Shown here: positions 16,900 through 61,169 of the stretch, one piece after another
How positions within the stretch are numbered: position 1 is the first letter of the stretch
Layout: the number at the start of each line of letters is the position of its first letter
Assembly: GCA_024998755.1 (NCBI GenBank)
Contig: JACEUU010000002.1
Location: 76,783 to 140,782, forward strand
Source of the DNA: Vampirovibrio sp.
GTDB lineage: Bacteria; Cyanobacteriota; Vampirovibrionia; Vampirovibrionales; JAJTHC01
Length of the DNA: 64,000 nt
Reading direction: 5' to 3'
Notes under the pieces: generated by a model
Told to the model about the DNA's origin: nothing
The model's database searches: none
What the model saw: the letters and a program-made list of their open reading frames with translations, nothing else
Made by a program: the position numbers and the translations under genes

Positions 16900-17217
16900 T
16901 TGCGGTTTTCAACCGCCGTTGCCCCCTGCTTCGCACTCAACCCCGCCTTTCCCTCACCCTAGCCCTCTCCCAGAGGGAGAGGGGACGGTAAACCTAGGTA
17001 AACGGCGGGTTTTCGCCCTATGGGTGGGGCAACTAACGCTTTATTGCCCCCTCTCCCGCTGGGAGAGGGCTGGGGTGAGGGTTTTTAGAAACGGGAGGGT
17101 TTGAAACCCTTCCCTACACAATAGCCTAAATCTCGTCATGTTGAGCGTAGTCGAAACATCCCCCCAGACGCTAAGGAGATTCCTCGGCTACGCTCGGAAT
17201 GACAAAACACGCTATTT
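16900..17217. repeat. Cluster of family-2 GC-rich palindromic repeats, including the gtcatgttgagcg...gaatgacaaaacacgctattt module.
   Basis: ccctctccc-aga-gggagaggg and ccctctcccgctgggagagggctggggtgagggttttt match 2437-2478. The terminal module matches 28697-28773 and 54476-54567. Confidence 0.5.
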
Positions 17218-19960: not shown

Positions 19961-21122
19961 AATGAAGTTACGGAATAAGGGTGTGCAGGTGGGAGTAGTG
20001 AGTGTTTTTTAATAAAATTCAACCAAAAATGCTCAAAAAACAGAACAATACCCCTTGTTTCCACTCTTTTCGGATCATAATTACCTAAAAACCATACAAG
20101 AATCCACTAAAACCTACCCCCCTCCTCACCAAAAAACCATACCGACGACAATTATACCCAAATGCCAAGCCCAAAATCTCCGCAGAAACACGCACTAACC
20201 CACGACAAGACACACGAACCTTCTTAAACACCGTCTTCCAACCCGCAAACACATGCTCCACTCTTGCCCGAACCTTAGAAACCAACCCATTAAACCGCTT
20301 CTGCGAAGCCGTCAACTCAGGCGTTGGTTCATGCTGCTTACCCCGAACACGACGCTTAATAATCCTCGGCTGTATCCCCAACGCCTTCAAATCCTTCTCC
20401 TTACCCACATACCCACTATCCGCACCAACAGTCTGCTCATCGCCCACCAGTACAGGCAGTAAACTCTGACTGTCATGCACATTGGCACCAGTAACAACCA
20501 CCTTGCGAATCAACTTGCTTTTAGCATCCACATTAACCGTGGCACTGTAACCAAAGCCTTTGTAGCCATAAGTGGCATCAGGGTCGCTCTGGTCTTCAGG
20601 CTTTTTTCTCTGTTTGCTATTGGCTTTAATAAAGGTGGCATCTACCAAGTTGCCTTCTTTAAGAATGAGGTTGTTCTCTTGGAAGAAGGTGTCTAAGGCT
20701 AAGAAAAGGGCTTCTTGGGCTGGGGTGTTTTGCAGTTCGTGTTGGAAGTTTTCGAGTGTCGTGGCTTCAGGGATGGGGGATTCTAAGGAGAAGCCGAGAA
20801 ACTTTCGGAAGGAGAGTCTGTCGTGGCATTGAAATTCGGTTTGTTCATAGGAGAGATTGAACCATATTTTGAGGAGGTTCATTTTGAGCAGTAGTAGGCG
20901 TTTGTAGGGTGGTCTGCCGTTGGGTTTGTGGTGGATGTGTGTTTTGAGGATGGTTTCAAATAGTTGCCATGGTAGGGTTTGGTTCATTTCCTCTAGGAAT
21001 TTGTGAGTGGGGGTGGCTTGTTGAATTTGGATGTCGGCAAAGGTAGTCATGGGGGTGGGGTATCCTATGAGAGGTGGAATAATGTCCCTTCTATTTTACC
21101 TTGCCCTTTTTCCGTAACTTCA
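19961..21122 (-). mobile_element. IS5-family insertion sequence, copy 2, inverted relative to copy 1.
   Basis: Reverse complement of copy 1 end to end. Its flanking triplets do not match each other (ata vs ttt). Confidence 0.8.
20085..21050 (-). CDS. IS5-family DDE transposase (copy 2).
   Basis: Identical 321-aa product. Confidence 0.8.
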   Translation of the reverse strand: MTTFADIQIQQATPTHKFLEEMNQTLPWQLFETILKTHIHHKPNGRPPYKRLLLLKMNLLKIWFNLSYEQTEFQCHDRLSFRKFLGFSLESPIPEATTLENFQHELQNTPAQEALFLALDTFFQENNLILKEGNLVDATFIKANSKQRKKPEDQSDPDATYGYKGFGYSATVNVDAKSKLIRKVVVTGANVHDSQSLLPVLVGDEQTVGADSGYVGKEKDLKALGIQPRIIKRRVRGKQHEPTPELTASQKRFNGLVSKVRARVEHVFAGWKTVFKKVRVSCRGLVRVSAEILGLAFGYNCRRYGFLVRRGVGFSGFLYGF

Positions 21123-24361: not shown

Positions 24362-25537
24362 TTATTTGCCAAATAGCGAAATCGAAGTGGCTTCACCGCC
24401 GTTCAGCTTAACAAGAAATTCGTGAAGTTCATTCATTAATTGAGCCGTTTCTGGCTCAATTGAAAAATGATTGTCTCTACAATCTACAAAACTTTCAATT
24501 CGCCCTTCTATTGACGGGTTTTTTTTAATGAACTGCTTTTCTTCCTCTGTGAATAATGAGGTTCGAGTTTCATATTGATGAATGGCTTCCTTGTATATTT
24601 TTAGTTCACGCACAGCAAAAGTTATTTGATTTGGTTCTACCGATTTGAGGTTAGGTAAGTTGCTTACTTCTTCTAAAACTTCACAAGTTTCTCTTAACAA
24701 CACTTGCAAAATAAGTGGATTTACTTTTTCCTTTTCTGATAAGGATTGAATCAACAACAACAGGGGTTCGCAAGGCTTGGTAGGTGCGTCTGGATAGAGA
24801 TTTCTTGTTAGGGTTTCTCTCTGTTCATGTTTTGCTTTGATTTCAGCTAAAGTTTTTTCAATTTTAGGTACTATTTCTTTATTTTTAGACATATAAGCTT
24901 CAATAAAACCTTCTTTTCCTCCTCGTATAAAGTTAATGCTAATTTGGTGTTCTGCTTCTTTTCTAGCATTAAATTGAATACGATTCATAGCATTACCAAT
25001 ATAATTTGCAAACACCATGAGTTTATCCATTTTTTCATCTAACTGATTTATTTGATGGGACTGTAAACTAGATTGCTTATATAAAAAAAAGAGATCGCTT
25101 TTCGCCTCCAGTAACAATCGTCGCATCTCGGAAAGTCCAGACTCCAAATCTTCGCCATTCGTTCTGTTTTTGAGTTGCTTTTCTAATCTATCCAACTTTT
25201 TTTCCATCTGGGCTAGTGCCGTCTGCACTTCGTGCAACGCTCCCTTGTTTGCATGGTTCATTTTTGAATAAAGTAAACCCACCCCAAAAACAGCACACAA
25301 ACTAGCAATAAAGCCCATGGTAGCCAAAACAACAGACGTTTTATCTGCTACCGGCACTTCCCTAATAACAACCTTCGGTGGCACGGATGGCTTTTCAGAA
25401 GATTTTTTCTCAAAGCTATCGACTACTTCAATCGGGTTGTCTTTTCCCGCATCTCGTGGGCTTGCCAGTTTCTTCCCCTGCCCAAGCGGAGGATAAGAAT
25501 TGCTGAAGGTTAAAGCGGTAGGCACTATTGTCATCAT
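24362..25537 (-). CDS. Hypothetical membrane-anchored coiled-coil protein.
   Basis: One transmembrane helix (VVLATMGFIASLCAVFGVGLLY) followed by long heptad-rich helical sequence. Confidence 0.4.
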   Translation of the reverse strand: MMTIVPTALTFSNSYPPLGQGKKLASPRDAGKDNPIEVVDSFEKKSSEKPSVPPKVVIREVPVADKTSVVLATMGFIASLCAVFGVGLLYSKMNHANKGALHEVQTALAQMEKKLDRLEKQLKNRTNGEDLESGLSEMRRLLLEAKSDLFFLYKQSSLQSHQINQLDEKMDKLMVFANYIGNAMNRIQFNARKEAEHQISINFIRGGKEGFIEAYMSKNKEIVPKIEKTLAEIKAKHEQRETLTRNLYPDAPTKPCEPLLLLIQSLSEKEKVNPLILQVLLRETCEVLEEVSNLPNLKSVEPNQITFAVRELKIYKEAIHQYETRTSLFTEEEKQFIKKNPSIEGRIESFVDCRDNHFSIEPETAQLMNELHEFLVKLNGGEATSISLFGK

Positions 25538-25692: not shown

Positions 25693-27537
25693 ATGATGAT
25701 GAAAATTTCCACCCTGTTTGCCTCTACCTTACGAGACGTTCCTGCTGACGCCGAAGTGGTCAGCCACCAACTGCTATTGCGGGCGGGCTACATTCGCCGT
25801 ATTACCAGTGGCGTCTACAGTTACCTACCCCTCATGTGGCGAACCCTACAAAAAATTAGCACCATCGTACGGGAAGAAATGAATCGTGCCAATGCTCAAG
25901 AATTGCTGATGCCCATTCTACAACCTCGGGAATTATGGGAATCTTCAGGACGGTGGAGCGTTTATGGCGACGAACTAATGCGGCTAAAAGACCGCCACCA
26001 AAGAGATTTCTGTCTTGCCCCAACAGGTGAAGAGGTCATCACCCAACTAGCTCAAATTGAAGTAAAATCTTACCGGCAATTGCCACTCAACCTCTATCAA
26101 GTTTCTAATAAATATCGCGATGAGCGTCGCCCTCGGTTTGGGCTATTGCGTGGGCGTGAATTTATTATGAAGGATGCTTATAGCTTTCACGCCAACCAAG
26201 CCTGCTTAGACCGTGAATACGAAGTAATGGCAGAAGCCTACACCGCTATTTTTAACCGATGCGGTGTAAAAACCAAGATGGTTGCCAGTGATTCTGGGGC
26301 AATTGGCGGAGCAGTAAGCCACGAATTTATGATGTTGACAGGCTATCAAGCCGAAGCCCAACAATCAGGCGAAAACGATGTGGTTCATTGTGAAACTTCG
26401 GGGTATGCGGCTAATAGCGAAAAAGCGGTGTCCATTCCGCAACCGCAAGCCGTAGATGGTGCTGATACATTCAGCCAATATAACGCCACAACCAACGTAG
26501 AAACCCCTTACACTGATACGATTGAAAAATTGTGTAAAAAGCTAAAATGTTCTGCAGAAGTGATTTGCAAAACACTGTTATATGTAAAAGATGAAACGGA
26601 TTTTATCGCCGTGTTGATGCGGGGCGATTATGATGTGGAAGAAACCAAGCTGAAGAACGCCTTGGGTGCATTAACCCTTCGTATGGCGACAGAAGAAGAA
26701 TTGACAAGGCTTTACGAAACCAAAAAAGGCTTCGTTGGTTATTATGAGGCTTTATGTTCAGGTGAAACTGTTGATTTAACTAGCGTTAAAGGCAAAGATG
26801 GCACACCCGTTAGCCTGTTGGTGGATAAAACGGTAGTATCAATGAAAAACTTTGTCATAGCCAATATGGAAGCCCACGTTCATTGGGTTAACGCCAATTG
26901 GGCAGGCAATTGTTGCCAAGCTGAAGGCATCACTGTGGCGGATGTTCGCACCGTGAAAGCAGGCGATCTATGCGTTGAAAGCAATCAACCGTTGAGTATT
27001 ACTCGAGGGATTGAAGTCGGCAATATTTTCCAATTGGGCACGAAGTATTCCGAAAGTATGCAAGCCACTTACACCGCTGAAGATGGCACAGAACAACCGT
27101 TTGTGATGGGTTGCTACGGTATTGGCGTTAGCCGTGTAGCTGCTTCCGCCGTGGAACGCTACCACGATGCGAACGGTATTATCTGGCCTACAGCGATTGC
27201 CCCGTATCAAGTGATTATTGTACCTGCCAACGTAAAAGATGAAACCCAGTGGGCATTGGCAAATCAGCTTTACGCCGAACTTAAAACCGTTTTGGGCGAT
27301 GAGGTGTTGCTAGATGACCGTGATGAGCGGGCAGGCGTGAAGTTTAAAGATGCGGATTTAATGGGCTTCCCGTTAAGAATTACGGTTGGTAAATTAGCGG
27401 GTGAAGGCAAGGTAGAAGCCAAACTTCGGGCATCAAAAGACCTCATTATTTTAGATGCCAGTGATGTTGCCACCCAAGCAAAAACCCTATTAGCCCAGTG
27501 GGACGCCCTTTCGTGGGAACCGCCTGTAACCCCATAA
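25693..27537 (+). CDS. proS: Prolyl-tRNA synthetase, bacterial type with an INS editing domain.
   Basis: Class II aaRS motifs plus the inserted editing domain, ~600 aa. It starts ATGATGATG. Confidence 0.8.
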   Translation: MMMKISTLFASTLRDVPADAEVVSHQLLLRAGYIRRITSGVYSYLPLMWRTLQKISTIVREEMNRANAQELLMPILQPRELWESSGRWSVYGDELMRLKDRHQRDFCLAPTGEEVITQLAQIEVKSYRQLPLNLYQVSNKYRDERRPRFGLLRGREFIMKDAYSFHANQACLDREYEVMAEAYTAIFNRCGVKTKMVASDSGAIGGAVSHEFMMLTGYQAEAQQSGENDVVHCETSGYAANSEKAVSIPQPQAVDGADTFSQYNATTNVETPYTDTIEKLCKKLKCSAEVICKTLLYVKDETDFIAVLMRGDYDVEETKLKNALGALTLRMATEEELTRLYETKKGFVGYYEALCSGETVDLTSVKGKDGTPVSLLVDKTVVSMKNFVIANMEAHVHWVNANWAGNCCQAEGITVADVRTVKAGDLCVESNQPLSITRGIEVGNIFQLGTKYSESMQATYTAEDGTEQPFVMGCYGIGVSRVAASAVERYHDANGIIWPTAIAPYQVIIVPANVKDETQWALANQLYAELKTVLGDEVLLDDRDERAGVKFKDADLMGFPLRITVGKLAGEGKVEAKLRASKDLIILDASDVATQAKTLLAQWDALSWEPPVTP

Positions 27538-27624: not shown

Positions 27625-28689
27625 ATGATGATGAGTATTTCCCTATTTGAAACCATTGCCCAACACGGGCACGAAAGCGTCCTAACTTGCTACGATTTTA
27701 AATCTGGCTTAAAAGGCTTTATTGGGTTGCACAATACCACATTAGGTCCTGGTTTGGGCGGGTGTCGTGTGATGCGATACCCTTCCGAAGCGGCTGCCTT
27801 CCAAGATATGCTTGCTCTTTCCGAAGCAATGACTTATAAAAACAGCTTGGCTGGCTTACCTTATGGTGGCGGTAAAGCCGTTATTTGGTTGCAAGAAGGG
27901 CAAGAAAAAACACCGGAACTGATTGACGCCATGGGGCGGTGCATTAAATCGCTCAACGGTAGTTATTTCACCGCAACAGATATTGGTTCTACCAGTGCAG
28001 ATATGAAACGCATGAGAGCTATTTCCCCTTACGTTTCAGCTCTTTCGCCTGAAGACGGAGGACTGGGCGATTCTGCTATTTTAACAGGCTTGGGCGTTTA
28101 CCAAGGCATTCGGGCAGCGGTGAAACATCGGTTAGGTAAAACCTCATTAGATGGCGTAAAAATTGCCATTCAAGGAGCTGGAAAAGTAGCCTACCATATG
28201 TTAAGCCACCTAACCCAAGAAGATGTAACCGTTTACCTAACAGATACGAATGAAGAAGCCATTGCAAAATGCCAAGCAGCTTATCCAACCATCAAGGTTG
28301 TTGCCCCTTCGGAAATTTGGCATCAGCCCGTAGATATTCTTTCCCCTAACGCCATTGGCGGAACAATTACTGATGAAGTCATTGCCAATTCAACGGCAAC
28401 CATTATTGCTGGCGGTGCTAATAACCCCTTGCGTGATAGAGGCGTTGCCACAACCGCAGCAACAGCAGAAGTTTTGTTCGCTCCGGATTTTGCGATTAAT
28501 TCAGGGGGCGTCATTGTGCTAAGCACGGAACTAGCCAAAGGCACAATTGAAGAAGCAAAAACTAAAACATTGGGTATTTATGATACGGCGTTGCGGGTGT
28601 TTGAAGTAGCTAAAGCTAGAAAAATCAACACATTAGAAGCAGCTATTGCCCTAGCCAAAGAAAATATCACTAATAACGCTAAAGGCTAA
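27625..28689 (+). CDS. Glu/Leu/Phe/Val dehydrogenase-family amino-acid dehydrogenase (Leu/Phe-DH-like).
   Basis: GLPYGGGKAV catalytic-lysine motif and an NAD Rossmann GxGxVA. Size is ~354 aa. Confidence 0.65.
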   Translation: MMMSISLFETIAQHGHESVLTCYDFKSGLKGFIGLHNTTLGPGLGGCRVMRYPSEAAAFQDMLALSEAMTYKNSLAGLPYGGGKAVIWLQEGQEKTPELIDAMGRCIKSLNGSYFTATDIGSTSADMKRMRAISPYVSALSPEDGGLGDSAILTGLGVYQGIRAAVKHRLGKTSLDGVKIAIQGAGKVAYHMLSHLTQEDVTVYLTDTNEEAIAKCQAAYPTIKVVAPSEIWHQPVDILSPNAIGGTITDEVIANSTATIIAGGANNPLRDRGVATTAATAEVLFAPDFAINSGGVIVLSTELAKGTIEEAKTKTLGIYDTALRVFEVAKARKINTLEAAIALAKENITNNAKG

Positions 28690-30991: not shown

Positions 30992-33355
30992 TTAAGAACC
31001 TTGATATAACTTAGAATAAACCCAAATGCCTTCAAAAACGTGTTCAACATAATGGCGTGTTTGGTCATAAGGAATGGTTTCAACAAACAAATCCGGTGAT
31101 TGTGCGAACACTTCCTGCCGAACATTAACCCATTCCGCAACGGCACCTGGGCCAGCATTATACGCCGCCACAACCAATAACGGATGCTGTTGAAGCTGAT
31201 TATTTAAATACTGCAAATAAGCCGAACCCAAGGTAATATTCGTCTTCGGATCCATTAATTGAAGCGATGAAACGGGTGGTTGCTTTAAACTTCTAGCCAT
31301 ATCATTAGCAGTAGAGGGCAATAACTGCATCAAACCAACCGCCTTGGCAGGGCTCACTACCATGGGGTTAAAGGAACTTTCCTGACGCATAAGTGCCATG
31401 GTCAAATAGGGGCTAATTTTTTCACGTTCAGCTTGGACTTGAACAATCGCAGGGTAATGTAGCGGAAATAACAATTGATACAACGTTTTAGGGGCATGAT
31501 ACCGAGATTCAACCGTATGCGGTACATCTAAGCTCGACAAATAATCCCGAATAACCCGTAAGCTGGCATCATACTGGTCTTGTTCCACCTTAGACCAAGC
31601 GGAAAGCACCACTTGTTCCACCGAATTTTCAGGGAGGGTTTGGCTAATTAACAAATCTACATCATCAAAGGCTTGTATCTCATTCAGCTCGCGAACTTGA
31701 GAAGATAACTGCTTGGGTACTCGGGAAGATTTCGCTAAATAATCTTCCAGCCAAGCATCTGGATTCGACGGATTTTTTTCCAGTAGTGGTAATCCTCCCG
31801 CCATGTTGCCTAAACCAAAGCCACTGGCTTCTTTAATGTTATTAAGGTAGGCATTTGCCCTAAACGCATAATAGGTGTAAGGGTATTTTGATTGAATGAC
31901 TTCAAACGCATCAGTAGCATCTAGGTTTTGCCCCATTAATTGATGAGAAACGGCCTTCCAAAACAGCACGGCAGGGGCTTCAATACTAGCGGGATACTGT
32001 GCCAAAAACGCATCTGCTTGGCTAATAACTTTACCAAACGATTTGGTAATAAATTGGTGGCGAATGACTTCAGAACTAGCAAACGGTGCAACTCTATCTT
32101 TAGGAAACTGGGTGGCAATTTTTTCATAAGCAGGAAGAGCCAATTTGTCATCTGCTTGGCTTATAAACCATGCCAAACCCAATTTGTTTTGTTGACTGGT
32201 ATTGCCTAATGCCACTAATTGAGGAATTGCTTTTGCTTTCCCTATTTTGGCTACATATTGTTCTAGTACGGGTTGTAAAGCTTTCACAGGAAAGTCTACC
32301 GTATTCAACCAACTGGTTAAATTCACCTTAAACGAATCCATTTTACCTTGATGTAGCAACAATTCCAAGTAAACTAGCCCTGCAGAATTAGCACGGAAGC
32401 CTTTTTTCAAAATAGTATCAACCATTGCCCAATCATTAGCTTTAGCAAAAACATTGGCAACTAAAGCCCGTTGCTCAAAATTCAGGATATCATTTACTTT
32501 AGCTAATTGCTTGGCAATTTCTAAGCTGTAAGTACCGTCAGGCGATTGCTTTAAGTAAGTAATCCAAGCTTGTTGGGTTTCTTTTCCCAAACTATTGCCT
32601 TGCGAAGAAAGCGACAGTTGCTGATAAATTTGACCTAAAAAGTAGTTCGCCCCAATAGCGTAATTAGATTGTGGGAACGTTTTCTGCAATTGCAATAGCG
32701 TTTCTAACGATTTTTCCCACTGTTTTGCCCGTACTTGGGATAATCCTAATTCATACATGGCAACAGCAGCCAACGCATTACCTTCAGTGCCTCTATCAAT
32801 GACTTTTTTTAGGCGGATTTGCGTTAAATCTTCCCGAGGCACTTGGCTATAAAGATCTGCTAAATGAAGTGAAATGCTAGATTCTAAACCAGGGTAATAA
32901 GGCTCTACTTTTAAAAACAAGTCAATAGCCCGTTTGGTTTGCCCCGCTTTTTTGGCAACTAAGGCTTGTTTAAACAAGCTTTGCACTTGCGAACGAGAAT
33001 ACCCATCTGCCCCAGCATTAGGCTGAAAAATAGTAACCGCTCCTCTACCAAACAGCCCAGCCAAAGGTCCATTACCGGAAACACCCACATTCCAAAGCCA
33101 ATAAACACCCGCTAAAATAATAGCTCCAGCTACAACAAATGGGAATAATGAAAAACTAGGTGGACGCTGACCACCTCTTCTTCCCATGTGCTGACGATTT
33201 GAATTCACAAATGGAGATTTAGGGGATTGCTTAAAAGGGTTTGACATAAATAAGCCTTGTAAAAAACCAAAAGTAGAAGCGGTTCTAGCTGATGTAACCA
33301 ATGAGCGACGCCCTGTATTATGGGGTGGTGATTGCAATCTGGTCATCATCATCAT
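30992..33355 (-). CDS. slt: Soluble lytic murein transglycosylase (Slt-like).
   Basis: C-terminal SLT domain (LMRQESSFNPMVVSPAKAVGLMQLLPSTA) preceded by a long superhelical region. It starts ATGATGATGATG. Confidence 0.7.
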   Translation of the reverse strand: MMMMTRLQSPPHNTGRRSLVTSARTASTFGFLQGLFMSNPFKQSPKSPFVNSNRQHMGRRGGQRPPSFSLFPFVVAGAIILAGVYWLWNVGVSGNGPLAGLFGRGAVTIFQPNAGADGYSRSQVQSLFKQALVAKKAGQTKRAIDLFLKVEPYYPGLESSISLHLADLYSQVPREDLTQIRLKKVIDRGTEGNALAAVAMYELGLSQVRAKQWEKSLETLLQLQKTFPQSNYAIGANYFLGQIYQQLSLSSQGNSLGKETQQAWITYLKQSPDGTYSLEIAKQLAKVNDILNFEQRALVANVFAKANDWAMVDTILKKGFRANSAGLVYLELLLHQGKMDSFKVNLTSWLNTVDFPVKALQPVLEQYVAKIGKAKAIPQLVALGNTSQQNKLGLAWFISQADDKLALPAYEKIATQFPKDRVAPFASSEVIRHQFITKSFGKVISQADAFLAQYPASIEAPAVLFWKAVSHQLMGQNLDATDAFEVIQSKYPYTYYAFRANAYLNNIKEASGFGLGNMAGGLPLLEKNPSNPDAWLEDYLAKSSRVPKQLSSQVRELNEIQAFDDVDLLISQTLPENSVEQVVLSAWSKVEQDQYDASLRVIRDYLSSLDVPHTVESRYHAPKTLYQLLFPLHYPAIVQVQAEREKISPYLTMALMRQESSFNPMVVSPAKAVGLMQLLPSTANDMARSLKQPPVSSLQLMDPKTNITLGSAYLQYLNNQLQQHPLLVVAAYNAGPGAVAEWVNVRQEVFAQSPDLFVETIPYDQTRHYVEHVFEGIWVYSKLYQGS

Positions 33356-33445: not shown

Positions 33446-34651
33446 TTAATGCCCTAGCAACGATTCTTTTAATTTAGCGAAAAAACCACTTGGGTGCGGT
33501 GCTTCTTCGCCCGCTTTGGTAGGTTCAGCCTTTGGTTTTTTTGCCATACGTTCTTGTTCTAATTGACGTAATTGTTGCAACAAGTCTCGTTCAGCAGAAG
33601 ATAATTTTTGAGGAATTTGAACTTCCAACTGTAAGCGAAATTCACCCCGACGTTGGGGCTGATTAATTTGGGGAATACCTTCGCCTTTCAGCGTAATAAC
33701 TGTGCCATTAGCTGAACCTGCTGGAATTTTAACGGATTGCACGCCTTTCAGTAAGGGAATTTCAACCGTATCACCCAACGCTAACTGGCTAAAGCTAACC
33801 GGAATTTTCGATAATACATCGTACCCATCTCTCACAAAATGAGCATCTGCGGCAACATTAAGCACCACATACAAATCGCCATTAGGGCCGCTCTTCCAGC
33901 CCGCATCGCCTTCATTTGAAACGCGCAACCGTGTGCCAGAATCTACTCCAGCAGGAATGGTTAATTCCAATGGTTTGGTTTGTTCTTTGCGTCCTTCGCC
34001 TTGGCAATCAGGGCAAGGGTGGGGCATTACCTGCCCAGACCCATTACAATGAGGGCAAGTAACTACTTGGGTAAATTGCCCAAACATGGTTTGTGCCGTT
34101 TGTCGAATTTGTCCGTGCCCGTTACAGTGGGTACAGGTTTCAGGACTCGTGCCTGGGGCTGCACCGCTACCATGGCAAGTGGTACAGGTATCTAACCGAC
34201 GCACTTCAATCGTTTTTTCACACCCAAAGGCAGCTTCCATAAAGGTTAGCTTCAAGGAAACACGCAAATCGCTACCACGGGCAGGGCTATTAGCAGACCC
34301 CCGACCACCACCGCCGGAAAACCCGCCATTGAAGAAGGCTGAAAAAATATCTGACAAATCAGTAAAATCATCCATAAAGCCCCATGAAGATGCCCCACCA
34401 CCCATACCAGATGAGCCTTTTAAACCTTCATGCCCGTAGGCATCGTAAGTACGGCGTTTTGTCTCATCGCTTAAAACGGCGTAAGCTTCGCCTAATTCTT
34501 TAAATTGAGATTCCGCTGTGGGGCTTTTATTGGTATCTGGGTGCAATTCTTTCGCCTTTTGACGAAAAGCTTTTTTAATAGCAGCAGCGTCGGCGGATTT
34601 TGCCACGCCTAATACGTCATAATAATCTCTTTGTTGTTGTTGCTGGCTCAT
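33446..34651 (-). CDS. dnaJ: Chaperone DnaJ.
   Basis: J-domain with HPD, a G/F region and four CxxCxGxG zinc-finger repeats. Confidence 0.85.
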   Translation of the reverse strand: MSQQQQQRDYYDVLGVAKSADAAAIKKAFRQKAKELHPDTNKSPTAESQFKELGEAYAVLSDETKRRTYDAYGHEGLKGSSGMGGGASSWGFMDDFTDLSDIFSAFFNGGFSGGGGRGSANSPARGSDLRVSLKLTFMEAAFGCEKTIEVRRLDTCTTCHGSGAAPGTSPETCTHCNGHGQIRQTAQTMFGQFTQVVTCPHCNGSGQVMPHPCPDCQGEGRKEQTKPLELTIPAGVDSGTRLRVSNEGDAGWKSGPNGDLYVVLNVAADAHFVRDGYDVLSKIPVSFSQLALGDTVEIPLLKGVQSVKIPAGSANGTVITLKGEGIPQINQPQRRGEFRLQLEVQIPQKLSSAERDLLQQLRQLEQERMAKKPKAEPTKAGEEAPHPSGFFAKLKESLLGH

Positions 34652-34713
34652 AATCTAAAAAAAAGTTCCCTAATGCTTAAAAAATAAAGAATTTAAATGA
34701 ATTGAAATAGCGA

Positions 34714-35271
34714 TTACTCTGGGTTTGTAGCTACAATAACTTGTGCTGCACGAATTACTTTATCATGCAGTTGGTAACCCGCCAGTTGTTCTGCAATCAC
34801 AGAATTTTCAGGGGCAGCAGGCATGGCTAGTTGGCTAACCGCTTCATGAATAGCAGGGTCAAACTGTTGACCGACTGTTTCCATCCGCTTTACACCTAAT
34901 GCTTCAAGTGCTTGTTTCAATTGCTGGTGCATCATTAACAACCCTTGGTACAACACTTTAGATTCTGATGTTTCAGTTAAAGATTGTTTAGCACGGTCTA
35001 AATTATCCAATACCGGTAATAAGTTTGAAGCAAACGGTTCTGCCCCGTACTTGCGATGTTGTTCTAATTCCGCCAACCGACGCTTACGAAAATTGTCAAA
35101 ATCTGCTGCTAACCGCAAGTGCTGATTTTGCAATTCCTGATAAGCTTCTACCTGCACCGCCAATGCTTCTTCAGGAGTTAAGGCTTTTTCTTCTTCCGCT
35201 TCAACAGCAGGGGTTGGTTCAATCAATTGTTCTTCAAGTTGTTCAGATGAGGAGGGGTTTGTGGTGGTCAT
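34714..35271 (-). CDS. grpE: Nucleotide exchange factor GrpE.
   Basis: GrpE signature and size. It lies directly upstream of dnaJ with no dnaK between them. Confidence 0.8.
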   Translation of the reverse strand: MTTTNPSSSEQLEEQLIEPTPAVEAEEEKALTPEEALAVQVEAYQELQNQHLRLAADFDNFRKRRLAELEQHRKYGAEPFASNLLPVLDNLDRAKQSLTETSESKVLYQGLLMMHQQLKQALEALGVKRMETVGQQFDPAIHEAVSQLAMPAAPENSVIAEQLAGYQLHDKVIRAAQVIVATNPE

Positions 35272-35440: not shown

Positions 35441-35989
35441 CTATTCAGCCCTTTTGTCAACCACTTTAGCCGGTACGCCTTGAGCAAAACAATGCGGTGG
35501 AATACTTTTCGTAACAATACTGCCTGATTCTATTACACACCCCTCACCCAAAGTAACACCCCCTAAAATCAACACATTAGAGCCAATATAAACGGCATCT
35601 TCCACCAAAATGGGCGGCATTGAAATATTCGGACGCAGAATTTTAAAATCAGATTGCAACTCATGCGAACTGTTAACAAATTTAGTACCATTACCAATTG
35701 TAACACAGTTACCAATGGTTACTAAATTTGGGGCATCAAAATAAATATTACGCCCTATGGTTACATTATTGCCAATTTTAATAGGGGTTTTGGTGGAATG
35801 AATATAAACCCCAGTACCAACAGAACAACCCGAACCTAAATCAAACCCAGCCCACGCTAGTAGTTTTGCCCTAAGCCTATTCGCACCTACACCAAACCCT
35901 AAACAATCAATCCATCTGAAAACCCAAAAGGCATAAACATCCCTCAATTCTGAGAATAGTTTTTCTTTCAGTTTGTTTAATACAGACAT
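35441..35989 (-). CDS. Hexapeptide-repeat acyl/acetyltransferase (WcaF/LbH family).
   Basis: Left-handed beta-helix hexapeptide repeats. It is paralogous to 36074-36664. Confidence 0.6.
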   Translation of the reverse strand: MSVLNKLKEKLFSELRDVYAFWVFRWIDCLGFGVGANRLRAKLLAWAGFDLGSGCSVGTGVYIHSTKTPIKIGNNVTIGRNIYFDAPNLVTIGNCVTIGNGTKFVNSSHELQSDFKILRPNISMPPILVEDAVYIGSNVLILGGVTLGEGCVIESGSIVTKSIPPHCFAQGVPAKVVDKRAE

Positions 35990-36073
35990 GGCTTAGGCTC
36001 CATTCTCAAAGTAAATAGCTTTTTCAATGATAATAACAAAGAAACAACGATTATGGCGAAAAACTTCCATACG

Positions 36074-36664
36074 CTAATTTGAAGGTGGGGTTAATTGCCT
36101 AACCACCTTGGCAGGGTTACCCACCGCAAAACAATGAGGCGGAATATCCGCATCTACCAAGCTACCCGCCCCAATAACAGACCCTTCGCCAATGGTAACC
36201 CCACTTAAAATAGTTACATCACAAGCAATCCACACAAAAGGTTCTACAACAGTGGGTTTACTGGTAACAACGTCTGTTTCAGCATTTGTATTTCGGGGGC
36301 GTTTCATAAATTTAACACCATGCCCAATGCCAATATAGTCGCCTACAATAACGGGGTTATCTTCATCAAAGCAGACATCAATATTAATAAAAACGTGTTT
36401 ACCAATTTTAACAGGGGCATGCACCGAATAAATATAAGAATACGGACGAATGACTGTTCCCCAACCTATATCAAACCCAGCCAATTTTAACAACATGGCA
36501 CGTAGCCTGCTACCAATGGCACTATAGCCTAGTAAATCTAGCAGTTTAAACACCCAAAAAGCGTAAAATCCACCCCATTCAGCGGTTAGTTTTGAAAAAA
36601 CGGTAATTTTATTCATACCATTCAACCATATAATATCCCGATAAAATAACGACTGCATTATCAT
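36074..36664 (-). CDS. Hexapeptide-repeat acyl/acetyltransferase, a tandem paralog.
   Basis: Same architecture and a conserved YAFWVF motif. Alignment with its paralog suggests the ATG at 36616 as an alternative start. Confidence 0.6.
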   Translation of the reverse strand: MIMQSLFYRDIIWLNGMNKITVFSKLTAEWGGFYAFWVFKLLDLLGYSAIGSRLRAMLLKLAGFDIGWGTVIRPYSYIYSVHAPVKIGKHVFINIDVCFDEDNPVIVGDYIGIGHGVKFMKRPRNTNAETDVVTSKPTVVEPFVWIACDVTILSGVTIGEGSVIGAGSLVDADIPPHCFAVGNPAKVVRQLTPPSN

Positions 36665-36751
36665 AACACAAATGAAGCTTGTTCAAGGTTTTATAAAGAC
36701 AAGTACAATTTAGAAGCTTCCTAGCATTGGAAGAAAAGGTGTGTTCACTTC

Positions 36752-37519
36752 ATGCTAAGTATAGCCAACAACCGCATTAACCCATCGTTGCTACTAGGCG
36801 TTAAGCCTAGAGAAAGTTCGCTTTCTTTTGAAGAGCAAGTGTTGGCTGACGTTGAAACCCCTGTTTTAAAACCCTCTTCACCCGATACCTTTGAACAACT
36901 AACCGATGATGATGAAGATAAACCACCTGTTCCAGACCCTACAACTGATGACGACTATTACTTGTCTGAAGCCGCTGAATACCCTAAGCATAACCTTCCC
37001 CAAAAATCAGACGCTGAAATGAAAGTCCAATTTTTAAAAGATGCTACTGAACTGCATGAAGTAAAAGTTTCAACCGCTTTAATGACTGCCATACCTGTTT
37101 TAGGCCCAATTATTGCCAGTATTAGTACCTTTCTTTCAAACCCAGAAACGCTCGCTGAAAAACGCTTAGACGTAAAGACGGGTGAACGATCAGTGGAAGA
37201 AGGTATCGACCAAGAAGCCAAGGTAAAAAAAGCGAAAACAAAAGCACTGTTAGTAACGTCCGTTCCACAAGTAGCCAGCCTGGGCGTTATCATAGCCCAT
37301 CAACTGGTGGTGGAAAACTTACTAAAAGAAGCAAAAATAAAGCTTTCTGATGCGAAGGCAGTTACAGACTTTTTGGCTAAAGCCATCGATCCAAGGGTAC
37401 AAAGAAGCCATGCCCTGCTAGGGTTGGGTATTGTATTAGGGGCTAGTTCGTTTCTAGCCCCTATAGGGTATTTGTTTTTAGAAAAGCCTGAAGACGCCAA
37501 TTTTAATAAATTGGCTTAA
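36752..37519 (+). CDS. Hypothetical protein with an acidic disordered N-terminus and a conserved C-terminal domain containing two hydrophobic segments (paralog A).
   Basis: Its C-terminal ~140 aa align with those of 37761-38441 (KKAKTKALLVTSVPQV / KTAKIKAALVTAVPQV; LGIVLGASSFLAPIGYLFLEKPEDANFNK / GTIIGTTCGLTTLGYWLGEKPASKDFNK). Confidence 0.5.
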   Translation: MLSIANNRINPSLLLGVKPRESSLSFEEQVLADVETPVLKPSSPDTFEQLTDDDEDKPPVPDPTTDDDYYLSEAAEYPKHNLPQKSDAEMKVQFLKDATELHEVKVSTALMTAIPVLGPIIASISTFLSNPETLAEKRLDVKTGERSVEEGIDQEAKVKKAKTKALLVTSVPQVASLGVIIAHQLVVENLLKEAKIKLSDAKAVTDFLAKAIDPRVQRSHALLGLGIVLGASSFLAPIGYLFLEKPEDANFNKLA

Positions 37520-37584
37520 TCTTTAACACAAAAAAACGAATTGAGGTTTTTATGCTTTCAAGTAATAGTATTATAACCGTGTGT

Positions 37585-37731
37585 AATACCATTTTCAAAT
37601 AGGAATAGCGTTAGATGGATACTAGGCACTGGCAAGTAAAAAACCGCAGGCGTACACAGACGTACGTTGAGGATTTTTTGCTTGACTGTAACAACGTAGA
37701 CGCTGACGATATTTCTATTTGAAAATGGTAT
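37585..37731. repeat. MITE-like element (family 1, copy B) with perfect 17-bp TIRs (ataccattttcaaatag).
   Basis: About 90% identical to 7235-7380. It sits immediately 5' of paralog B. Confidence 0.6.
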
Positions 37732-37760
37732 AAACCGTAATTTAAAAGGATTTAATAAAA

Positions 37761-38441
37761 ATGCCCATCAATCCGTTCATAAATAATTTATCTTCAGCTT
37801 TTTCAGCACACCCACCCACACCAAGGAAAAGTAGTCCTCGGGAAGAACTAGACGACGACTTTGCTACTGCCAATGATGATAACAATGGTGATACGGTAGA
37901 GTTTTCAAATAAATCTGCCAGTAAAATTTCAAAAAAAATAGACAAGCTTCAAGAAGCCCAAGATAACGCTGATGAATTGCAAGAACTAAAAGAACAACAG
38001 CAATTGCTTCAGCAGTTGGATAAAGAAGAAATTCACGCCGCTAAAGTGAAAGCGTCATTTTGGGGGTCTATTCCTTATATCGGTCCGTTTATTGGTATTT
38101 TTAGCAACGTCTTTGTTTCGCCTGAAAGCAATGTGGCTAACAGAACGGATGTTCGGTTAAATGGCAGAGACGAAGACGACGCCTTGAAACAAGAAAAGCG
38201 AATTAAAACGGCTAAAATTAAAGCAGCCTTAGTAACTGCCGTTCCGCAAGTAATTGGGTTTACCTTAACCACTATTGGTGGGTTTATGACTAAACACGCT
38301 GAAGAAAACAAGAAAAGTACCTCGTTAGCAAAGGCTCTGATGTTAGCTGGAACGATTATAGGTACCACCTGTGGTTTAACAACCTTAGGCTATTGGTTAG
38401 GCGAAAAACCAGCGTCTAAAGACTTCAACAAAACTTTGTAG
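37761..38441 (+). CDS. Hypothetical protein, paralog B of 36752-37519.
   Basis: See paralog A; it has the MITE upstream. Confidence 0.5.
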   Translation: MPINPFINNLSSAFSAHPPTPRKSSPREELDDDFATANDDNNGDTVEFSNKSASKISKKIDKLQEAQDNADELQELKEQQQLLQQLDKEEIHAAKVKASFWGSIPYIGPFIGIFSNVFVSPESNVANRTDVRLNGRDEDDALKQEKRIKTAKIKAALVTAVPQVIGFTLTTIGGFMTKHAEENKKSTSLAKALMLAGTIIGTTCGLTTLGYWLGEKPASKDFNKTL

Positions 38442-43654: not shown

Positions 43655-43861
43655 ATGATGGGTAGTAATGTGAATGGAAGTAATGGTGCAATATTAACAG
43701 GCACATTAATTGGGGCAGGTTTTGGGTTAAAAGGGATGTCAGACCAACAAGCCAACAAGGTTATCTCCAGCACAACAATAGGTTTAACAGCAAGCAAAAC
43801 ACCCCTAGTTAACCAACCAGTTAAACAGGGGTGTTTTGATATAGTAAAAACGCTAAACTAA
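43655..43861 (+). CDS. Small hypothetical Gly-rich protein (68 aa) with a Gly-zipper-like hydrophobic segment.
   Basis: AGGGGA lies ~9 nt upstream of an ATGATG start. GAILTGTLIGAGFGLKG. Confidence 0.3.
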   Translation: MMGSNVNGSNGAILTGTLIGAGFGLKGMSDQQANKVISSTTIGLTASKTPLVNQPVKQGCFDIVKTLN

Positions 43862-44142
43862 CTAACGGCTATAGAAGAAGCAAACGCTCCTCTAGTCAAC
43901 GTGCTGCTTGTTCTAACCAAAGAAACCGTGGTTCTCTTTTGAAACTGAAAGACCACTGCTTTTTCAGGAAAAAAGCTAGAAGCTAGCCTATTTTCCGCAA
44001 CAATTAACGTAGAACCGGCTGGTTGCTTGGTTGAACGAGCTAATGAAACAGAATCCAGAATAGAAGTAACAGGGGGAAAGCTAGCCAAACCCAACAAATT
44101 GGACTGCATGGCATTAGCTGGGGAAAGTAACATCATCATCAT
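43858..44142 (-). CDS. Hypothetical protein downstream of the flagellin gene (possibly FlaG-like).
   Basis: Its position 3' of the flagellin gene and its size (~94 aa). It starts ATGATGATGATG. No strong motif. Confidence 0.3.
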   Translation of the reverse strand: MMMMLLSPANAMQSNLLGLASFPPVTSILDSVSLARSTKQPAGSTLIVAENRLASSFFPEKAVVFQFQKRTTVSLVRTSSTLTRGAFASSIAVS

Positions 44143-44473
44143 AGTTTATCCAATCTTAACAATCAGTAAGCGTAATTAAAGGTTTGACAATATTTTTTAC
44201 AGAAAAAAGTTCGTCAAAGAATATAAAACACCCATAGTATTCCCTACGTTTGTGAGAAACGTTCTCTCAAGCCGTGTTAAGTAATTGCGAGAGAGAGGAG
44301 AAAGTAAAGCTGGTTTTGCTGTTTGTTTAAATAAGACGTTGTTCAATAAATAACCTATACCATTCTCTGCAACTAAAACACATCAAGTTTTAGCAGAAAA
44401 ACAAGAAAATAAAGGCCTGAAAGAACGCATCACACAAACGCAAGGGGGGGTATATACTGTTTTGACTAACTTG

Positions 44474-45346
44474 TTATTGTTGTAATAATTGTAACGCTAA
44501 CTGAGGAATTTGATTGGCTTGCGAAAGAATTTGAGCAGATGCCTGTTGCAATACTTGGTTACGGGTTAATTCTGCACTTTCTTTGGCTACATCGGTATTA
44601 CGAATACGAGATTCCGACGCTGATTGACTTTCAATGTTTAAGCTCAGGTTGTTAAACGTACCATCTAACCGGTTAATCATAGCACCTAAGGAAGCCCTGC
44701 GGTTGTTCACCTTCTGCAATGCAGAATCCAACCGTTCTAACACCTTCAAAGAAGAGCCACTATTCATAACGTTTAAGGTTGTTGTTGTGCCAGTTAACCC
44801 TACTAAATCACGGATATTAACTGAATCAAAAGGGTTAACCCCACCAATATTAGCCAAATCAATACGGTCTACAGCACTGTTATAATTGGCACCAACTTGC
44901 ATATAGTAGTTGGAAATACTACCATCTAACAATGACCGACCATTAAATTGTGTACCCGCAGCAATACGGTTAATATCTACAGCTAACTGAGAAATTTCAG
45001 AAGTAATAGCACTACGTTGGCCTGTAGAGTATGTATCGTTAGCAGCCTGAACGGTTAATTCCCGCATCCGTTGAAGGTTGTCGGTCAAGGCTTGCATCGT
45101 ACCATCCATAATGTTTAGTACGTTAATACCGTCTTGTACGTTGTTACCAGCCTGTTGAGACCCTCTAATTTGCGTTCTTAACGATTCTGAAATTTGCAAA
45201 CCAGCAGCATCATCGCTAGCTTTGTTGATTTTAAATCCAGACGCCAATTTCTCGTAGGATTTTGACTGCATTCTGGTATTTTTAGACAATAAACGCTGAG
45301 CGTTTAATGACTGAATGTTGGTGTTAATAATGATACCCATCATCAT
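44474..45346 (-). CDS. fliC: Flagellin (short, ~290 aa).
   Basis: Conserved flagellin N-terminus (IINTNIQSLNAQRLL..., INKASDDAAGLQIS) and C-terminus (QANQIPQLALQLLQQ). GGAG lies upstream of the ATGATGATG start. Confidence 0.8.
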   Translation of the reverse strand: MMMGIIINTNIQSLNAQRLLSKNTRMQSKSYEKLASGFKINKASDDAAGLQISESLRTQIRGSQQAGNNVQDGINVLNIMDGTMQALTDNLQRMRELTVQAANDTYSTGQRSAITSEISQLAVDINRIAAGTQFNGRSLLDGSISNYYMQVGANYNSAVDRIDLANIGGVNPFDSVNIRDLVGLTGTTTTLNVMNSGSSLKVLERLDSALQKVNNRRASLGAMINRLDGTFNNLSLNIESQSASESRIRNTDVAKESAELTRNQVLQQASAQILSQANQIPQLALQLLQQ

Positions 45347-46136: not shown

Positions 46137-47447
46137 ATGATGATGATGACTCACTTAATTGTAGTTGGTGCCCAATGGGGCGATGAAGGCAAAGCCAAAG
46201 TGGTAGACCAACTAGCAGAATTTGCAGATATGGTTATACGCTCGCAAGGTGGTAGTAATGCAGGGCATACCGTCAAATTTAAAGGCGAAACCTTTAAATT
46301 TCATCACCTCCCTTCTGGTTTGCTTTATGAAGATAAAACTTGTATAATTGGTACAGGGGTCGTGTTAGCACCAGATTTTTTGCAGGAAGAATTAGATAGC
46401 ATTCACGCCAAAGGCTATTCTACCCAAAATCTTAAAATTAGCGACCGTTGCCATCTTACTTTCCCCTACCACATTGCTCAAGACAAGCAACAGGAAACAC
46501 TACGTTCTACCTGTACTAACGGTACAAAAATAGGCACTACGGGTAAAGGCATCGGGCCTACCTACATGGACAAAGTAGGCAGAATGGGCATTCGGGTAGC
46601 CGATTTATTTGAACCTGAAACCGTCTTAAAAGAACAATTAGCCTCTATACTCACGCAAAAAGAACTTCAGCAGCTATTTACCCTTGAAGAACTATACACA
46701 TTAGCTATGCGGTATAAAACCATTTTAGCCCCGTATGCGTGCGATACATTAGCCATACTACAAAATGCCTTAAAAGCCGGCAAGCAATTGCTATTTGAGG
46801 GGGCTCAAGGTACGTTGCTTGATATCGATTTTGGTACTTATCCTTATGTGACCAGTTCTAACGCTACAGCGGGTGGTGCTTGTACTGGCACCGGCGTAGG
46901 CCCCAGTAAAATTGACGCTACATTAGGCGTAATGAAAGCCTATTTAACCAGAGTAGGCGAAGGTCCTTTCCCGACAGAACTTTCAGACACCGTGATTGGT
47001 GAACGCATTTGTGAAATTGGGGTAGAATACGGTACTACCACAGGGCGTAAACGTAGGGTAGGCTGGTTTGATGCTGTTATAGCTAGGTTTGGTGTTGAAG
47101 TAAATGGGTTAGATGGCATTGCCTTAACAAAGCTAGATGTCTTAGATTCTTTTGAAACCATTGATGTTTGTACGGGCTATGTACATATAGAAACAGGTCA
47201 ACATTATGATCGGTTACCTACCAGCTTAACGCTTTTAAGCCAATTAAAACCGATTTATGAAACCCATGCCGGCTGGCTTACGGATACAACCGATTGTAAA
47301 ACGTTTCAAGCATTACCTGCTAATTGCCAAGCCTATGTAAAACGTTTAGAACAACTGATGGATTGTCCCGTTTGGATGGTTTCCGTTGGGCCAGACCGTG
47401 AACAAACGTTTATGCGTCGGCACCCATTTTCGTTGGAAACGGTTTAA
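46137..47447 (+). CDS. purA: Adenylosuccinate synthetase.
   Basis: VVGAQWGDEGKAK P-loop and GxGPTY, ~435 aa. It starts ATGATGATGATG. Confidence 0.85.
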   Translation: MMMMTHLIVVGAQWGDEGKAKVVDQLAEFADMVIRSQGGSNAGHTVKFKGETFKFHHLPSGLLYEDKTCIIGTGVVLAPDFLQEELDSIHAKGYSTQNLKISDRCHLTFPYHIAQDKQQETLRSTCTNGTKIGTTGKGIGPTYMDKVGRMGIRVADLFEPETVLKEQLASILTQKELQQLFTLEELYTLAMRYKTILAPYACDTLAILQNALKAGKQLLFEGAQGTLLDIDFGTYPYVTSSNATAGGACTGTGVGPSKIDATLGVMKAYLTRVGEGPFPTELSDTVIGERICEIGVEYGTTTGRKRRVGWFDAVIARFGVEVNGLDGIALTKLDVLDSFETIDVCTGYVHIETGQHYDRLPTSLTLLSQLKPIYETHAGWLTDTTDCKTFQALPANCQAYVKRLEQLMDCPVWMVSVGPDREQTFMRRHPFSLETV

Positions 47448-60952: not shown

Positions 60953-61169
60953 GGCAGATTGTTTCTAGTGGGGCTTCATACCTACCCAGTTTACCCTAAA
61001 CCAATAGGATGTTCAATGTTGAACCGTAGTACTTAAGTGTTTAGAAATATGTGCCAATTGTAGTTCTACAAGTGGTGTAAAAGCACCTATAACTTTTGGG
61101 TAAGTAGAGTCATTGTAGTTTTGCATTGCAACTCTTAACCCTGTAGCTTTAGAGCCTAATTTTTCTATT

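Follow-up and report, generated by a model that had tools for sequence, protein, structure and literature searches.

Divergent pairs of acetyltransferase genes and orphan helical-protein genes lie side by side in a Vampirovibrio clade

Do two divergently oriented gene pairs in the genome of a Vampirovibrio, a non-photosynthetic relative of the cyanobacteria, belong together, and what might their products do? A sequence-only reading of this DNA had described two hexapeptide acetyltransferase paralogues on the minus strand facing two paralogues of a novel protein family on the plus strand, with a MITE just before the last gene. ORF calling in the window (the whole analysed stretch of 64,000 nucleotides) placed all four ORFs exactly where that reading had put them. 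The features of the locus, here called AT1, AT2, A and B for the genes, are:

35441-35989, minus strand: AT1, ORF of 182 aa, predicted hexapeptide left-handed beta-helix O-acetyltransferase with the catalytic His kept (SSH109EL)
36074-36664, minus strand: AT2, mechanical ORF of 196 aa, paralogue of AT1
36665-36751, no strand: AT2-A divergent intergenic region, with putative promoters in both directions judged from its sequence
36752-37519, plus strand: A, 255 aa, A-type subfamily of an orphan Vampirovibrionales family; acidic disordered N-tail (aa 1-85) and helical domain (aa 86-250)
37064-37135, 37247-37321 and 37403-37480, within A: hydrophobic helices at aa 105-128, 166-190 and 218-243
37481-37516, within A: C-terminal tail EKPEDANFNKLA
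37586-37731, no strand: MITE of 146 nt in the A-B spacer, with 29-nt terminal inverted repeats (TIRs)
37761-38441, plus strand: B, 226 aa, same family, B-type subfamily; N-tail (aa 1-50) disordered and with PRK and DTVEF motifs, then a long helix (aa 51-102), followed by helices in the order seen in A
38403-38438, within B: C-terminal tail EKPASKDFNKTL
7235-7380, no strand: second MITE copy (blastn, 93.8% identity over 146 nt)

Pairwise comparison bore out the two divergent paralogue pairs: AT1 and AT2 are 43% identical over 178 aa (E 7e-47), and A and B are 31% identical over 157 C-terminal residues (E 2e-22). The block is flanked by housekeeping genes, slt-dnaJ-grpE on one side and addB-like-uppP on the other. 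Among the NCBI Vampirovibrio sp. MAG proteins MCS6266278-293, DnaJ, GrpE, AT1, UppP and flagellin are identical to those of the window; the AT1 entry, MCS6266284.1, is named 'acyltransferase [Vampirovibrio sp.]'. Relative to the orthologues in the close relative L001, all four genes showed dN/dS values of 0.11-0.23, and this purifying selection indicates that they are real genes; their rate of evolution is 2-7 times that of the adjacent housekeeping genes. Searches of the PADLOC (defence) and PHROGs (phage) libraries gave no match to any of the four, and Rfam found nothing in the block and a single tRNA in the whole window. All close relatives recovered (L001, L002, L003 plus two more contigs) keep the divergent order, and this leaves room for a functional link inside the clade. 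A promoter scan of the AT2-A intergenic region gave weak minus-strand matches that resemble promoters (36686/36685 to 36657).

AT1 and AT2 both passed the gathering score of 27 of the Pfam Hexapep model (PF00132), with 46.1 and 45.9 bits respectively, and by sequence are members of the hexapeptide-repeat (LbH) acyltransferase superfamily. They resemble LacA/WcaF/SACOL2570-type acetyltransferases in their hexapeptide repeats and their size of about 180 aa, align over their full length with the WcaF subfamily model, and share the C-terminal motif IPP..xA.G.PAKV with galactoside, maltose and WcaF acetyltransferases. The best PDB matches of AT1 were SACOL2570 and galactoside O-acetyltransferase (E 7e-18). 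Unlike NCBIfam equivalogs, however, the two proteins fall far below every cutoff, with 65.5 and 76.9 bits against 192 for NF007797 (the WcaF subfamily, which is the best NCBIfam match of AT1) and 45 and 59 bits against 326 for TIGR04008 (WcaF). They also stand apart from known acetyltransferases in that identity to the nearest sequences outside the pair and its orthologues does not exceed 43%. The best relative of AT2 is AT1, at 139 bits versus at most 90 bits for outsiders, and the homology search found no close relatives of the pair outside this Vampirovibrio clade. On these scores AT1 and AT2 are each other's closest relatives and O-acetyltransferases of the GAT/MAT/WcaF type; the pair would have arisen when an acetyl-CoA-dependent hexapeptide O-acetyltransferase of the galactoside/maltose/WcaF type was duplicated in tandem within this lineage.

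The two paralogues differ at the predicted active site. The His of SSH109EL in AT1 aligned with the His of T-H-P in SACOL2570 (THPLN), as in GAT/MAT-type enzymes, whose general-base histidine, His115 in E. coli LacA, follows the beta-helix coil. AT2 departs from these enzymes: its KRPRN occupies the place of THPLN, and in the orthologue alignment the catalytic column held R, Q or Y, never His. The AT2 orthologues of close relatives are 84-99% identical and 179-180 aa long, and the true start of AT2 is probably M17 (36616), which would give 180 aa, as in these orthologues and AT1, and an AT2-A intergenic region of 135 nt. As far as the alignment tells, no AT2 orthologue retains the catalytic His, yet purifying selection on AT2 persists (dN/dS 0.20, versus 0.11 for AT1, both against L001). 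AT2 would then be a non-catalytic or altered subunit, and the pair, perhaps assembled as mixed trimers, would O-acetylate a sugar or a polysaccharide of the cell surface. AT2 may instead use another base, such as the conserved His of GIGHG.

The A/B family, for which we collected 33 clusters or members, has a recognizable architecture. Its N-tail is variable, disordered and acidic, and in the nearer subfamilies carries short PR[KE] and DT[VF]xF motifs; the N-termini of A and B are predicted to be disordered (pLDDT about 50), and the acidity previously ascribed to them was confirmed by net charges of -8 in B and -13 in the A orthologue P0003. The core runs from an EIHxAK helix to a conserved charged loop (NPExxAxxRxDV...QE...K.A.LKA), followed by one to three marginally hydrophobic Gly/Ser/Thr/Pro-rich helices and a near-invariant C-terminal tail, EKPExPxFNKxL. 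Two hydrophobic segments had been noted before; A has three, and their hydrophobicity is only marginal. A, B and the 33 family members gave no match above noise in Pfam-A, NCBIfam, PADLOC, PHROGs or the PDB sequences, and no Sec signal peptide was detected in A or B. The novelty suspected earlier thus stands: judged by these searches, A and B form an undescribed family, absent from Pfam, NCBIfam and PDB, and none of the homology searches assigned the conserved C-terminal domain to a housekeeping family. Matches to T2SSK_1st (E 0.012) and to the DUF7201 coiled coil were below cutoff and in low-complexity regions, and were dropped. A FlgM anti-sigma-28 reading of the N-terminal DTVxFS motif was likewise rejected, as PF04316 matched neither nine N-terminal fragments (E up to 10) nor the full-length A/B proteins. 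Two long proteins, P0022 (4376 aa) and P0029 (888 aa), were set aside as repeat or compositional hits, since they matched the Lys/Ala-rich helix of the profile alone, many times.

Both this family and that of the acetyltransferases are lineage-restricted. A word-indexed homology search with A returned orthologues that were 85-95% identical and nothing else; the same kind of search with the family profile added P0038 among the matches listed. Genome contigs yielded no match to a profile built from A and B alone and three Vampirovibrionales MAG loci to a 12-sequence profile. Judged by its named sequences, the family appears to be confined to the order Vampirovibrionales. Within it A groups with P0010 and B with P0007 and P0008. 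Several paralogues can occur within one sample, and one metagenome sample had its A-type and B-type genes on separate scaffolds. The local duplication proposed for both pairs consequently holds for the acetyltransferases but not for A and B, which by sequence come from different old subfamilies, a recent tandem duplication being ruled out. Distant members are single genes amid housekeeping genes. Recurring neighbours were absent from the loci examined, and secretion-gene linkage was absent from all 10 loci inspected for it.

Whether A and B are membrane proteins is a matter of small margins. Kyte-Doolittle peaks reached 1.66-1.88 in A and 1.2-1.5 in B, the latter under the classical threshold of 1.6. 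An additive insertion estimate, with biological-hydrophobicity scale values after Hessa et al. (2005), came to +2 to +7 kcal/mol for every segment of both proteins. Lys and Arg residues, counted from the sequence, were equally distributed in a 3-TM model of A (11 versus 11 on the two sides), and the positive-inside rule therefore yields no topology for A. In addition, the number of hydrophobic segments varies between two and three among family members, which means that the conserved C-tail would switch membrane side. We consider it most likely that A and B are small helical proteins that reside in the cytoplasmic membrane of the bacterium itself. Their N-tail would remain cytoplasmic, given the absence of a signal peptide, the hydrophobic helices would pack as a three-helix membrane bundle, and the conserved loop and C-tail would together make up a small module beyond the membrane, on the side opposite the N-tail. 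They would act as a scaffold or adaptor rather than an enzyme; a membrane-anchored scaffold is our best guess at their function.

The MITE upstream of B is real, but it does not lie exactly 5' of the gene as had been reported: its right end is 29 nt before the ATG. Its TIRs (37586-37614 and 37703-37731, 29 nt) are 90% complementary. L001 and L002 have an empty site, at which 147 nt are inserted here between GTGTGTA and AAACCG, and in L003 the identical site holds another element that shares its termini. The element is short and non-coding, has TIRs, is present in several copies and shows presence/absence polymorphism, and is thus a MITE. Nezha-type MITEs have been described in cyanobacteria. 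Like these and other bacterial MITEs, the element is intergenic and multi-copy, measures about 146 nt, is missing from the corresponding site of relatives and gives a transcript that folds strongly (-63.5 kcal/mol, z -10.4). It is unlike them in lacking a clear multi-base target-site duplication and in that its site is filled in L003 by another element with matching termini. The 147 nt inserted, against an element of 146 nt, and the flanks of both copies fit a 1-nt duplication (A/A here, C/C at 7235-7380); an alternative TAA duplication fits the A-B spacer copy only.

It had been asked whether this MITE supplies the promoter of B. A promoter scan found no sigma-70-like plus-strand site within it, and an 11/12 promoter-like site, with TTGAAA taken from the TIR, is on the minus strand (37598 to 37570). 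The right TIR does carry TTGAAA facing outward, but the -10 (TAAAAG) looked weak by eye, and the MITE was rejected as the promoter of B. The element thus shows no convincing outward promoter toward B; its plus strand has instead a terminator-like hairpin with a T-run (37649-37668). The MITE would have entered the A-B spacer recently, and a transcript reading through it would fold into a very stable hairpin with the terminator-like element; the MITE is therefore more likely to uncouple B from A, or to attenuate B relative to A, than to provide the promoter of B.

How, then, should the block as a whole be understood? The explanation we favour, with about even confidence, combines these readings of the acetyltransferases, the A/B membrane proteins and the MITE: unrelated lineage-specific gene pairs would have been juxtaposed on the chromosome of one genus-level Vampirovibrio clade. 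The AT pair and the A/B pair most likely lie side by side by chance. We regard as improbable that the four genes are one module, in which A and B as membrane partners anchor AT1 and AT2 or present their substrate for O-acetylation of surface polysaccharide or peptidoglycan. Such a module would account for the divergent order and short shared intergenic region in every close relative recovered, for the similarly raised dN/dS of all four genes, and for the nearby genes of undecaprenyl-diphosphate phosphatase and a lytic transglycosylase. However, the orthologues in these relatives are at least 84% identical (A 85-94%, AT2 84-99%), so the shared synteny may be plain inheritance. None of nine loci of distant A/B-family members had an adjacent Hexapep gene, their neighbours being housekeeping genes, which tells against the block as a conserved module, and close relatives of the AT pair were not found outside the clade, whereas A/B-type genes are much older. 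It is also doubtful that A and B are soluble or peripheral helical bundles, possibly oligomeric, with the semi-hydrophobic helices as core rather than spanning segments. This would fit the positive insertion energies, the sub-threshold hydropathy of B, the ambiguous positive-inside counts, the Lys and Asp inside the first hydrophobic segment of several members (FKPLWD), and the best, non-significant Foldseek matches, which were to soluble four-helix bundles, among them the sensor domains of Tsr/Tar and TorS.

A further possibility is that A and B are exported effectors that insert into prey or host membranes. The disordered N-tail or conserved C-tail would be the secretion signal, and the Gly/Ser-rich helices would insert as in Inc proteins, alpha-helical translocators or pore formers. 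The cultured member of the order is an obligate algal predator with predicted T4SS protein injection (PMC4451040), and the family has been seen in Vampirovibrionales only. Like chlamydial Inc and other hydrophobic-hairpin effectors, A and B have no Sec signal, a long disordered N-terminus and hydrophobic helices paired around a loop, and like Inc proteins they are lineage-restricted with several paralogues; the one member of their order in culture feeds on eukaryotic prey. Marginal hydrophobic helices such as theirs are typical of proteins kept soluble before insertion, and A and B outpace their neighbours in evolution. Yet A and B resemble Inc proteins neither in sequence nor in fold, and differ from them also in their C-terminal rather than near-N-terminal hydrophobic helices, their third hydrophobic segment, and their highly conserved polar loop and C-tail. 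No T3SS is known in this lineage. T4SS, flagellar-export and chaperone genes adjoin no family member examined, the acidic to neutral C-tail does not resemble the Arg-rich VirB/D4 secretion signal, a dN/dS of 0.22 is ordinary constraint, and a match to AhlC-type alpha-pore-forming toxins was noise (Foldseek E about 2, probability 0.06). We therefore hold export of this kind to be unlikely. The more specific view that A and B are a new Vampirovibrionales-specific class of proteins delivered into prey-cell membranes, with the disordered N-tail, a metastable Gly/Ser-rich helical bundle and the C-terminal EKPExPxFNKxL as a recognition peptide, and a predator analogue of Inc proteins lacking any relative in sequence or fold, is very unlikely.

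Under the favoured explanation of juxtaposed gene pairs, the AT pair is routine biology apart from a conserved His-less paralogue beside a canonical one, which makes AT2 a candidate pseudoenzyme subunit. A and B are for now one among many sets of lineage-specific hypothetical membrane proteins, and an unusual mechanism is without support; the family is nevertheless compact, is predicted to fold confidently, and has no sequence or fold relative. Vampirovibrionales are a predatory sister lineage of the photosynthetic cyanobacteria whose cell biology and predation machinery are almost uncharted, and the family definition (33 clusters, motifs and two old subfamilies) offers a handle for later work. 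The MITE site is a clean natural experiment, with strains carrying an empty site, this element or a different element at the same nucleotide, and these three alleles would let the effects of insertion on downstream gene expression be compared directly.

The sequence-only reading had placed two divergent paralog pairs here, and an ORF check recovered all four genes at exactly those coordinates. Both pairings were borne out, AT1 with AT2 (43% identity across 178 residues, E 7e-47) and A with B (31% identity across ~157 C-terminal residues, E 2e-22).

Features of the block and its immediate flanks
33446-35271, minus strand: grpE and dnaJ, adjacent with no dnaK between them
35441-35989, minus strand: AT1, hexapeptide acetyltransferase, 182 aa
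36074-36664, minus strand: AT2, its paralogue, 196 aa as an ORF
36752-37519, plus strand: A, orphan-family gene, 255 aa
37761-38441, plus strand: B, orphan-family gene, 226 aa
38455-41601, minus strand: AddB-like protein, 1048 aa, with a C-terminal PD-(D/E)XK / Cas4-like nuclease motif

The block lies between slt-dnaJ-grpE on one side and the AddB-like gene, uppP and a CN-hydrolase gene on the other, with flagellin ~6 kb away. The grpE-dnaJ arrangement is kept in relatives. The AddB-like protein gives weak Cas4 matches at aa 733-777, and no AddA/helicase partner adjoins its gene, which is directly followed by uppP. No mobility genes flank the block, and its GC content (0.39-0.42) does not differ markedly from that of the surroundings (~0.43). 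The same gene order was found in five related contigs, where the orthologues are 84-99% identical; DnaJ, GrpE, AT1, UppP, flagellin and other proteins of the window are identical to NCBI 'Vampirovibrio sp.' MAG proteins within MCS6266278-MCS6266293. Comparison with orthologues at L001, a metagenome-derived locus of a close relative, yielded dN/dS values of 0.11 (AT1), 0.20 (AT2), 0.23 (A) and 0.22 (B), against 0.01-0.09 for housekeeping neighbours and 0.115 for the AddB-like gene. All four are thus under purifying selection but evolve faster than their housekeeping neighbours, which marks them as real genes with a moderately fast rate of change.

The spacer between A and B does contain a MITE upstream of B, as had been proposed, and a second copy is present elsewhere in the window.

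MITE copies
37586-37731: 146 nt, A-B spacer, with 29-nt terminal inverted repeats (TIRs) at 37586-37614 and 37703-37731
7235-7380: second copy, 94% identical to the spacer copy

In the close relatives L001 and L002 the site is empty, 147 nt being absent between ...CCGTGTGTA and AAACCGTAATTT, and just 94 nt separate A from B, so that the two genes could be co-transcribed there. The suggestion that the element supplies the promoter of B found no support: a consensus scan detected no plus-strand promoter within it, and the right inverted repeat has an outward TTGAAA followed by only a weak -10, as judged by eye. The strongest sigma-70-like site of the region (37598->37570, minus strand, TTGAAA-17-TATAAT, 11/12) combines the TTGAAA of the left TIR with a flanking TATAAT and is directed antisense into A. 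The MITE RNA is predicted to fold into a hairpin of -63.5 kcal/mol (z = -10.4), and on the plus strand a terminator-like stem with a T-run behind it lies at 37649-37668. Because of this stem, the missing plus-strand promoter and the short A-B gap when the site is empty, the insertion is more likely to insulate or attenuate B than to drive its expression. At the identical nucleotide position, a third relative carries a different palindromic MITE-like element of ~137 nt (L003:1630-1770), which shares the termini of the window MITE (ATACCA...TGGTAT) and a related TIR, with an unrelated interior; TIRs of this type are absent from the window. This suggests that the spacer position is an insertion hot spot or that the elements are site-selective.

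Additional MITE-like palindromes occur in the window, and several MITE families appear to be abundant in the genome. An inverted pair of 321-aa ORFs, both with the N-terminus MTTFADIQIQQA, is probably a gene duplication or two copies of an insertion sequence, with ~1.7 kb between them.

Further repeats in the window
61169-61314: MITE-like palindrome with the 29/88/29-nt geometry of the spacer MITE, different in sequence
16951-17081: MITE-like palindrome
2368-2550: MITE-like palindrome
17387-18352, plus strand: 321-aa ORF
20085-21050, minus strand: 321-aa ORF

Separately, an unusual start-region trait of the lineage was observed: 7/50 long ORFs, including slt, flagellin, purA and proS, start with ATG repeated two to five times in tandem (from MM to MMMMM), and MMM starts also occur in some A/B family members from other samples.

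ORFs with tandem ATG starts
14983-15732
24362-25537
25693-27537
27625-28689
30992-33355
44474-45346
46137-47447

Both acetyltransferases score above the Pfam Hexapep cutoff. Their top NCBIfam matches (a WcaF-family subfamily, LacA, EpsC and WbbJ) all fall far under the curated cutoffs, and among solved structures S. aureus SACOL2570 / galactoside O-acetyltransferase comes closest (E 7e-18 for AT1, 5e-21 for AT2). They are divergent new additions to the LbH sugar O-acetyltransferases, and by family likeness the putative substrate would be a sugar or polysaccharide. His109 of AT1 (SSHEL) aligns on the T-H-P histidine of the solved relatives; in E. coli LacA the corresponding residue is the general base His115, as Wang et al. 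are said to have reported in 2002. AT2, whose start is most likely Met17 (36616, 180 aa) by likeness to its orthologues and AT1, carries KRPRN at this position and lacks the catalytic histidine, and the same column in its orthologues holds R, Q or Y and in none His. A database search with AT2 returned orthologues of 84-99% identity and then dropped to generic hexapeptide transferases (<=43%, <=90 bits). Since AT1 matches AT2 with 139 bits, outscoring all these non-orthologous relatives, the two are a lineage-specific duplication that predates the split of the window from L001. AT2 is the copy that lost the canonical catalytic residue, yet it is still constrained (dN/dS 0.20). Since LbH enzymes form trimers whose active sites lie at the subunit interfaces, a mixed AT1/AT2 trimer, in which AT2 would play a non-catalytic part, can reasonably be inferred. 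Beside the canonical AT1, AT2 is thus a candidate for a pseudoenzyme or a regulatory subunit.

A and B, in turn, fit no family or fold described so far. Neither A, B nor any of the 33 family members, each scanned singly, matched Pfam; NCBIfam, PADLOC and PHROGs gave no match, nor did the PDB sequences when hits as weak as E 10 were admitted. The proteins thus matched no described family, housekeeping or other. A HMMER scan of 1.84 billion representative proteins with the domain profile retrieved only 33 clusters at E<=1e-3, and the named members come solely from 'Vampirovibrionales bacterium' MAGs, with three MAG loci found by contig profile search. The proposal of a novel family is therefore right, and the genes are lineage-specific.

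Local duplication, which had been proposed for both pairs, holds for AT1/AT2 and not for A/B. In a neighbour-joining tree of the domain, A groups with the family member P0010 (49% identity) and B with P0007/P0008 (55% and 49%), while A and B share only 34% identity in this comparison; they thus belong to two old subfamilies and did not arise by a recent local duplication. In metagenome sample ERZ19569863, A-type and B-type genes lie on separate scaffolds in unrelated contexts. At 9/9 distant loci the family gene is single, none has a hexapeptide transferase beside it, and the neighbours are unrelated housekeeping genes (ABC1 kinase, His-biosynthesis, AccD/AccA, ABC ATPase, MetRS, RelA/SpoT, DAHP synthases, ribosomal protein S1, nitroreductase and M10 peptidase). 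When the profile was run on the ORFs of all six frames, no further copy turned up in the 64-kb window. The four genes can therefore not be demonstrated to form a module, and the block, confined to one genus-level clade, is best read as a juxtaposition, although a functional link between the two pairs within that clade is conceivable. A small conserved ORF (~92-94 aa, no Pfam match) follows flagellin both at locus L008 (L008:1338-2817) and in the window (43858-45346), with a family member within 3-6 kb in each (P0010 and A/B, respectively); this may be a synteny remnant or coincidence.

Read from the family alignment, the architecture begins with an N-terminal region that varies across the family and is acidic in both A and B, with the short motifs PR[KE] and DT[VF]xF[ST] conserved in the nearer subfamilies. 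It continues with a helix containing EIHxAK, the first semi-hydrophobic segment, in which P..GP is conserved, and a conserved charged stretch (NPExxAxxRxDV..G.R....A..QE...K.A.LKA), then one or two more hydrophobic segments with a loop between them that differs in length, and ends in a C-terminal tail, EKPExPxFNKxL, recognisable in 30/33 members. Two hydrophobic segments had originally been described for the shared domain; A has three. With Kyte-Doolittle peaks of 1.66-1.88 for the three segments of A and only 1.2-1.5 in B, and a positive sum (+2 to +7 kcal/mol) in a simple additive biological-hydrophobicity estimate that uses scale values attributed to Hessa et al. 2005, the hydrophobic helices are marginal. 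Gly, Ser, Thr and Pro are frequent in them, and they contain small-residue packing motifs. Lys/Arg counts give no orientation to a three-TM model, and a segment number of two or three across the family sits poorly with a fixed topology. Nevertheless, 33/33 aligned members have one or more hydrophobic segments, in nearly all directly before the conserved tail, and amphipathic helix is too scarce for a soluble monomer to bury three hydrophobic helices. For these two reasons we favour, with somewhat better than even confidence, a small membrane-embedded helical bundle. The disordered N-tail, lacking a signal peptide, would then stay cytoplasmic, and the conserved loop and C-tail would lie together on the opposite membrane face.

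The missing signal peptide, disordered N-terminus, paired hydrophobic helices and lineage restriction make A and B resemble chlamydial Inc-type hydrophobic-hairpin effectors, and the one cultured member of the order, V. chlorellavorus, preys on algae (PMC4451040). The housekeeping contexts of the family genes argue against such an effector role. While pointing to no new mechanism, the analysis provides a solid description of an orphan protein family and of an acetyltransferase paralogue that lacks the catalytic histidine.
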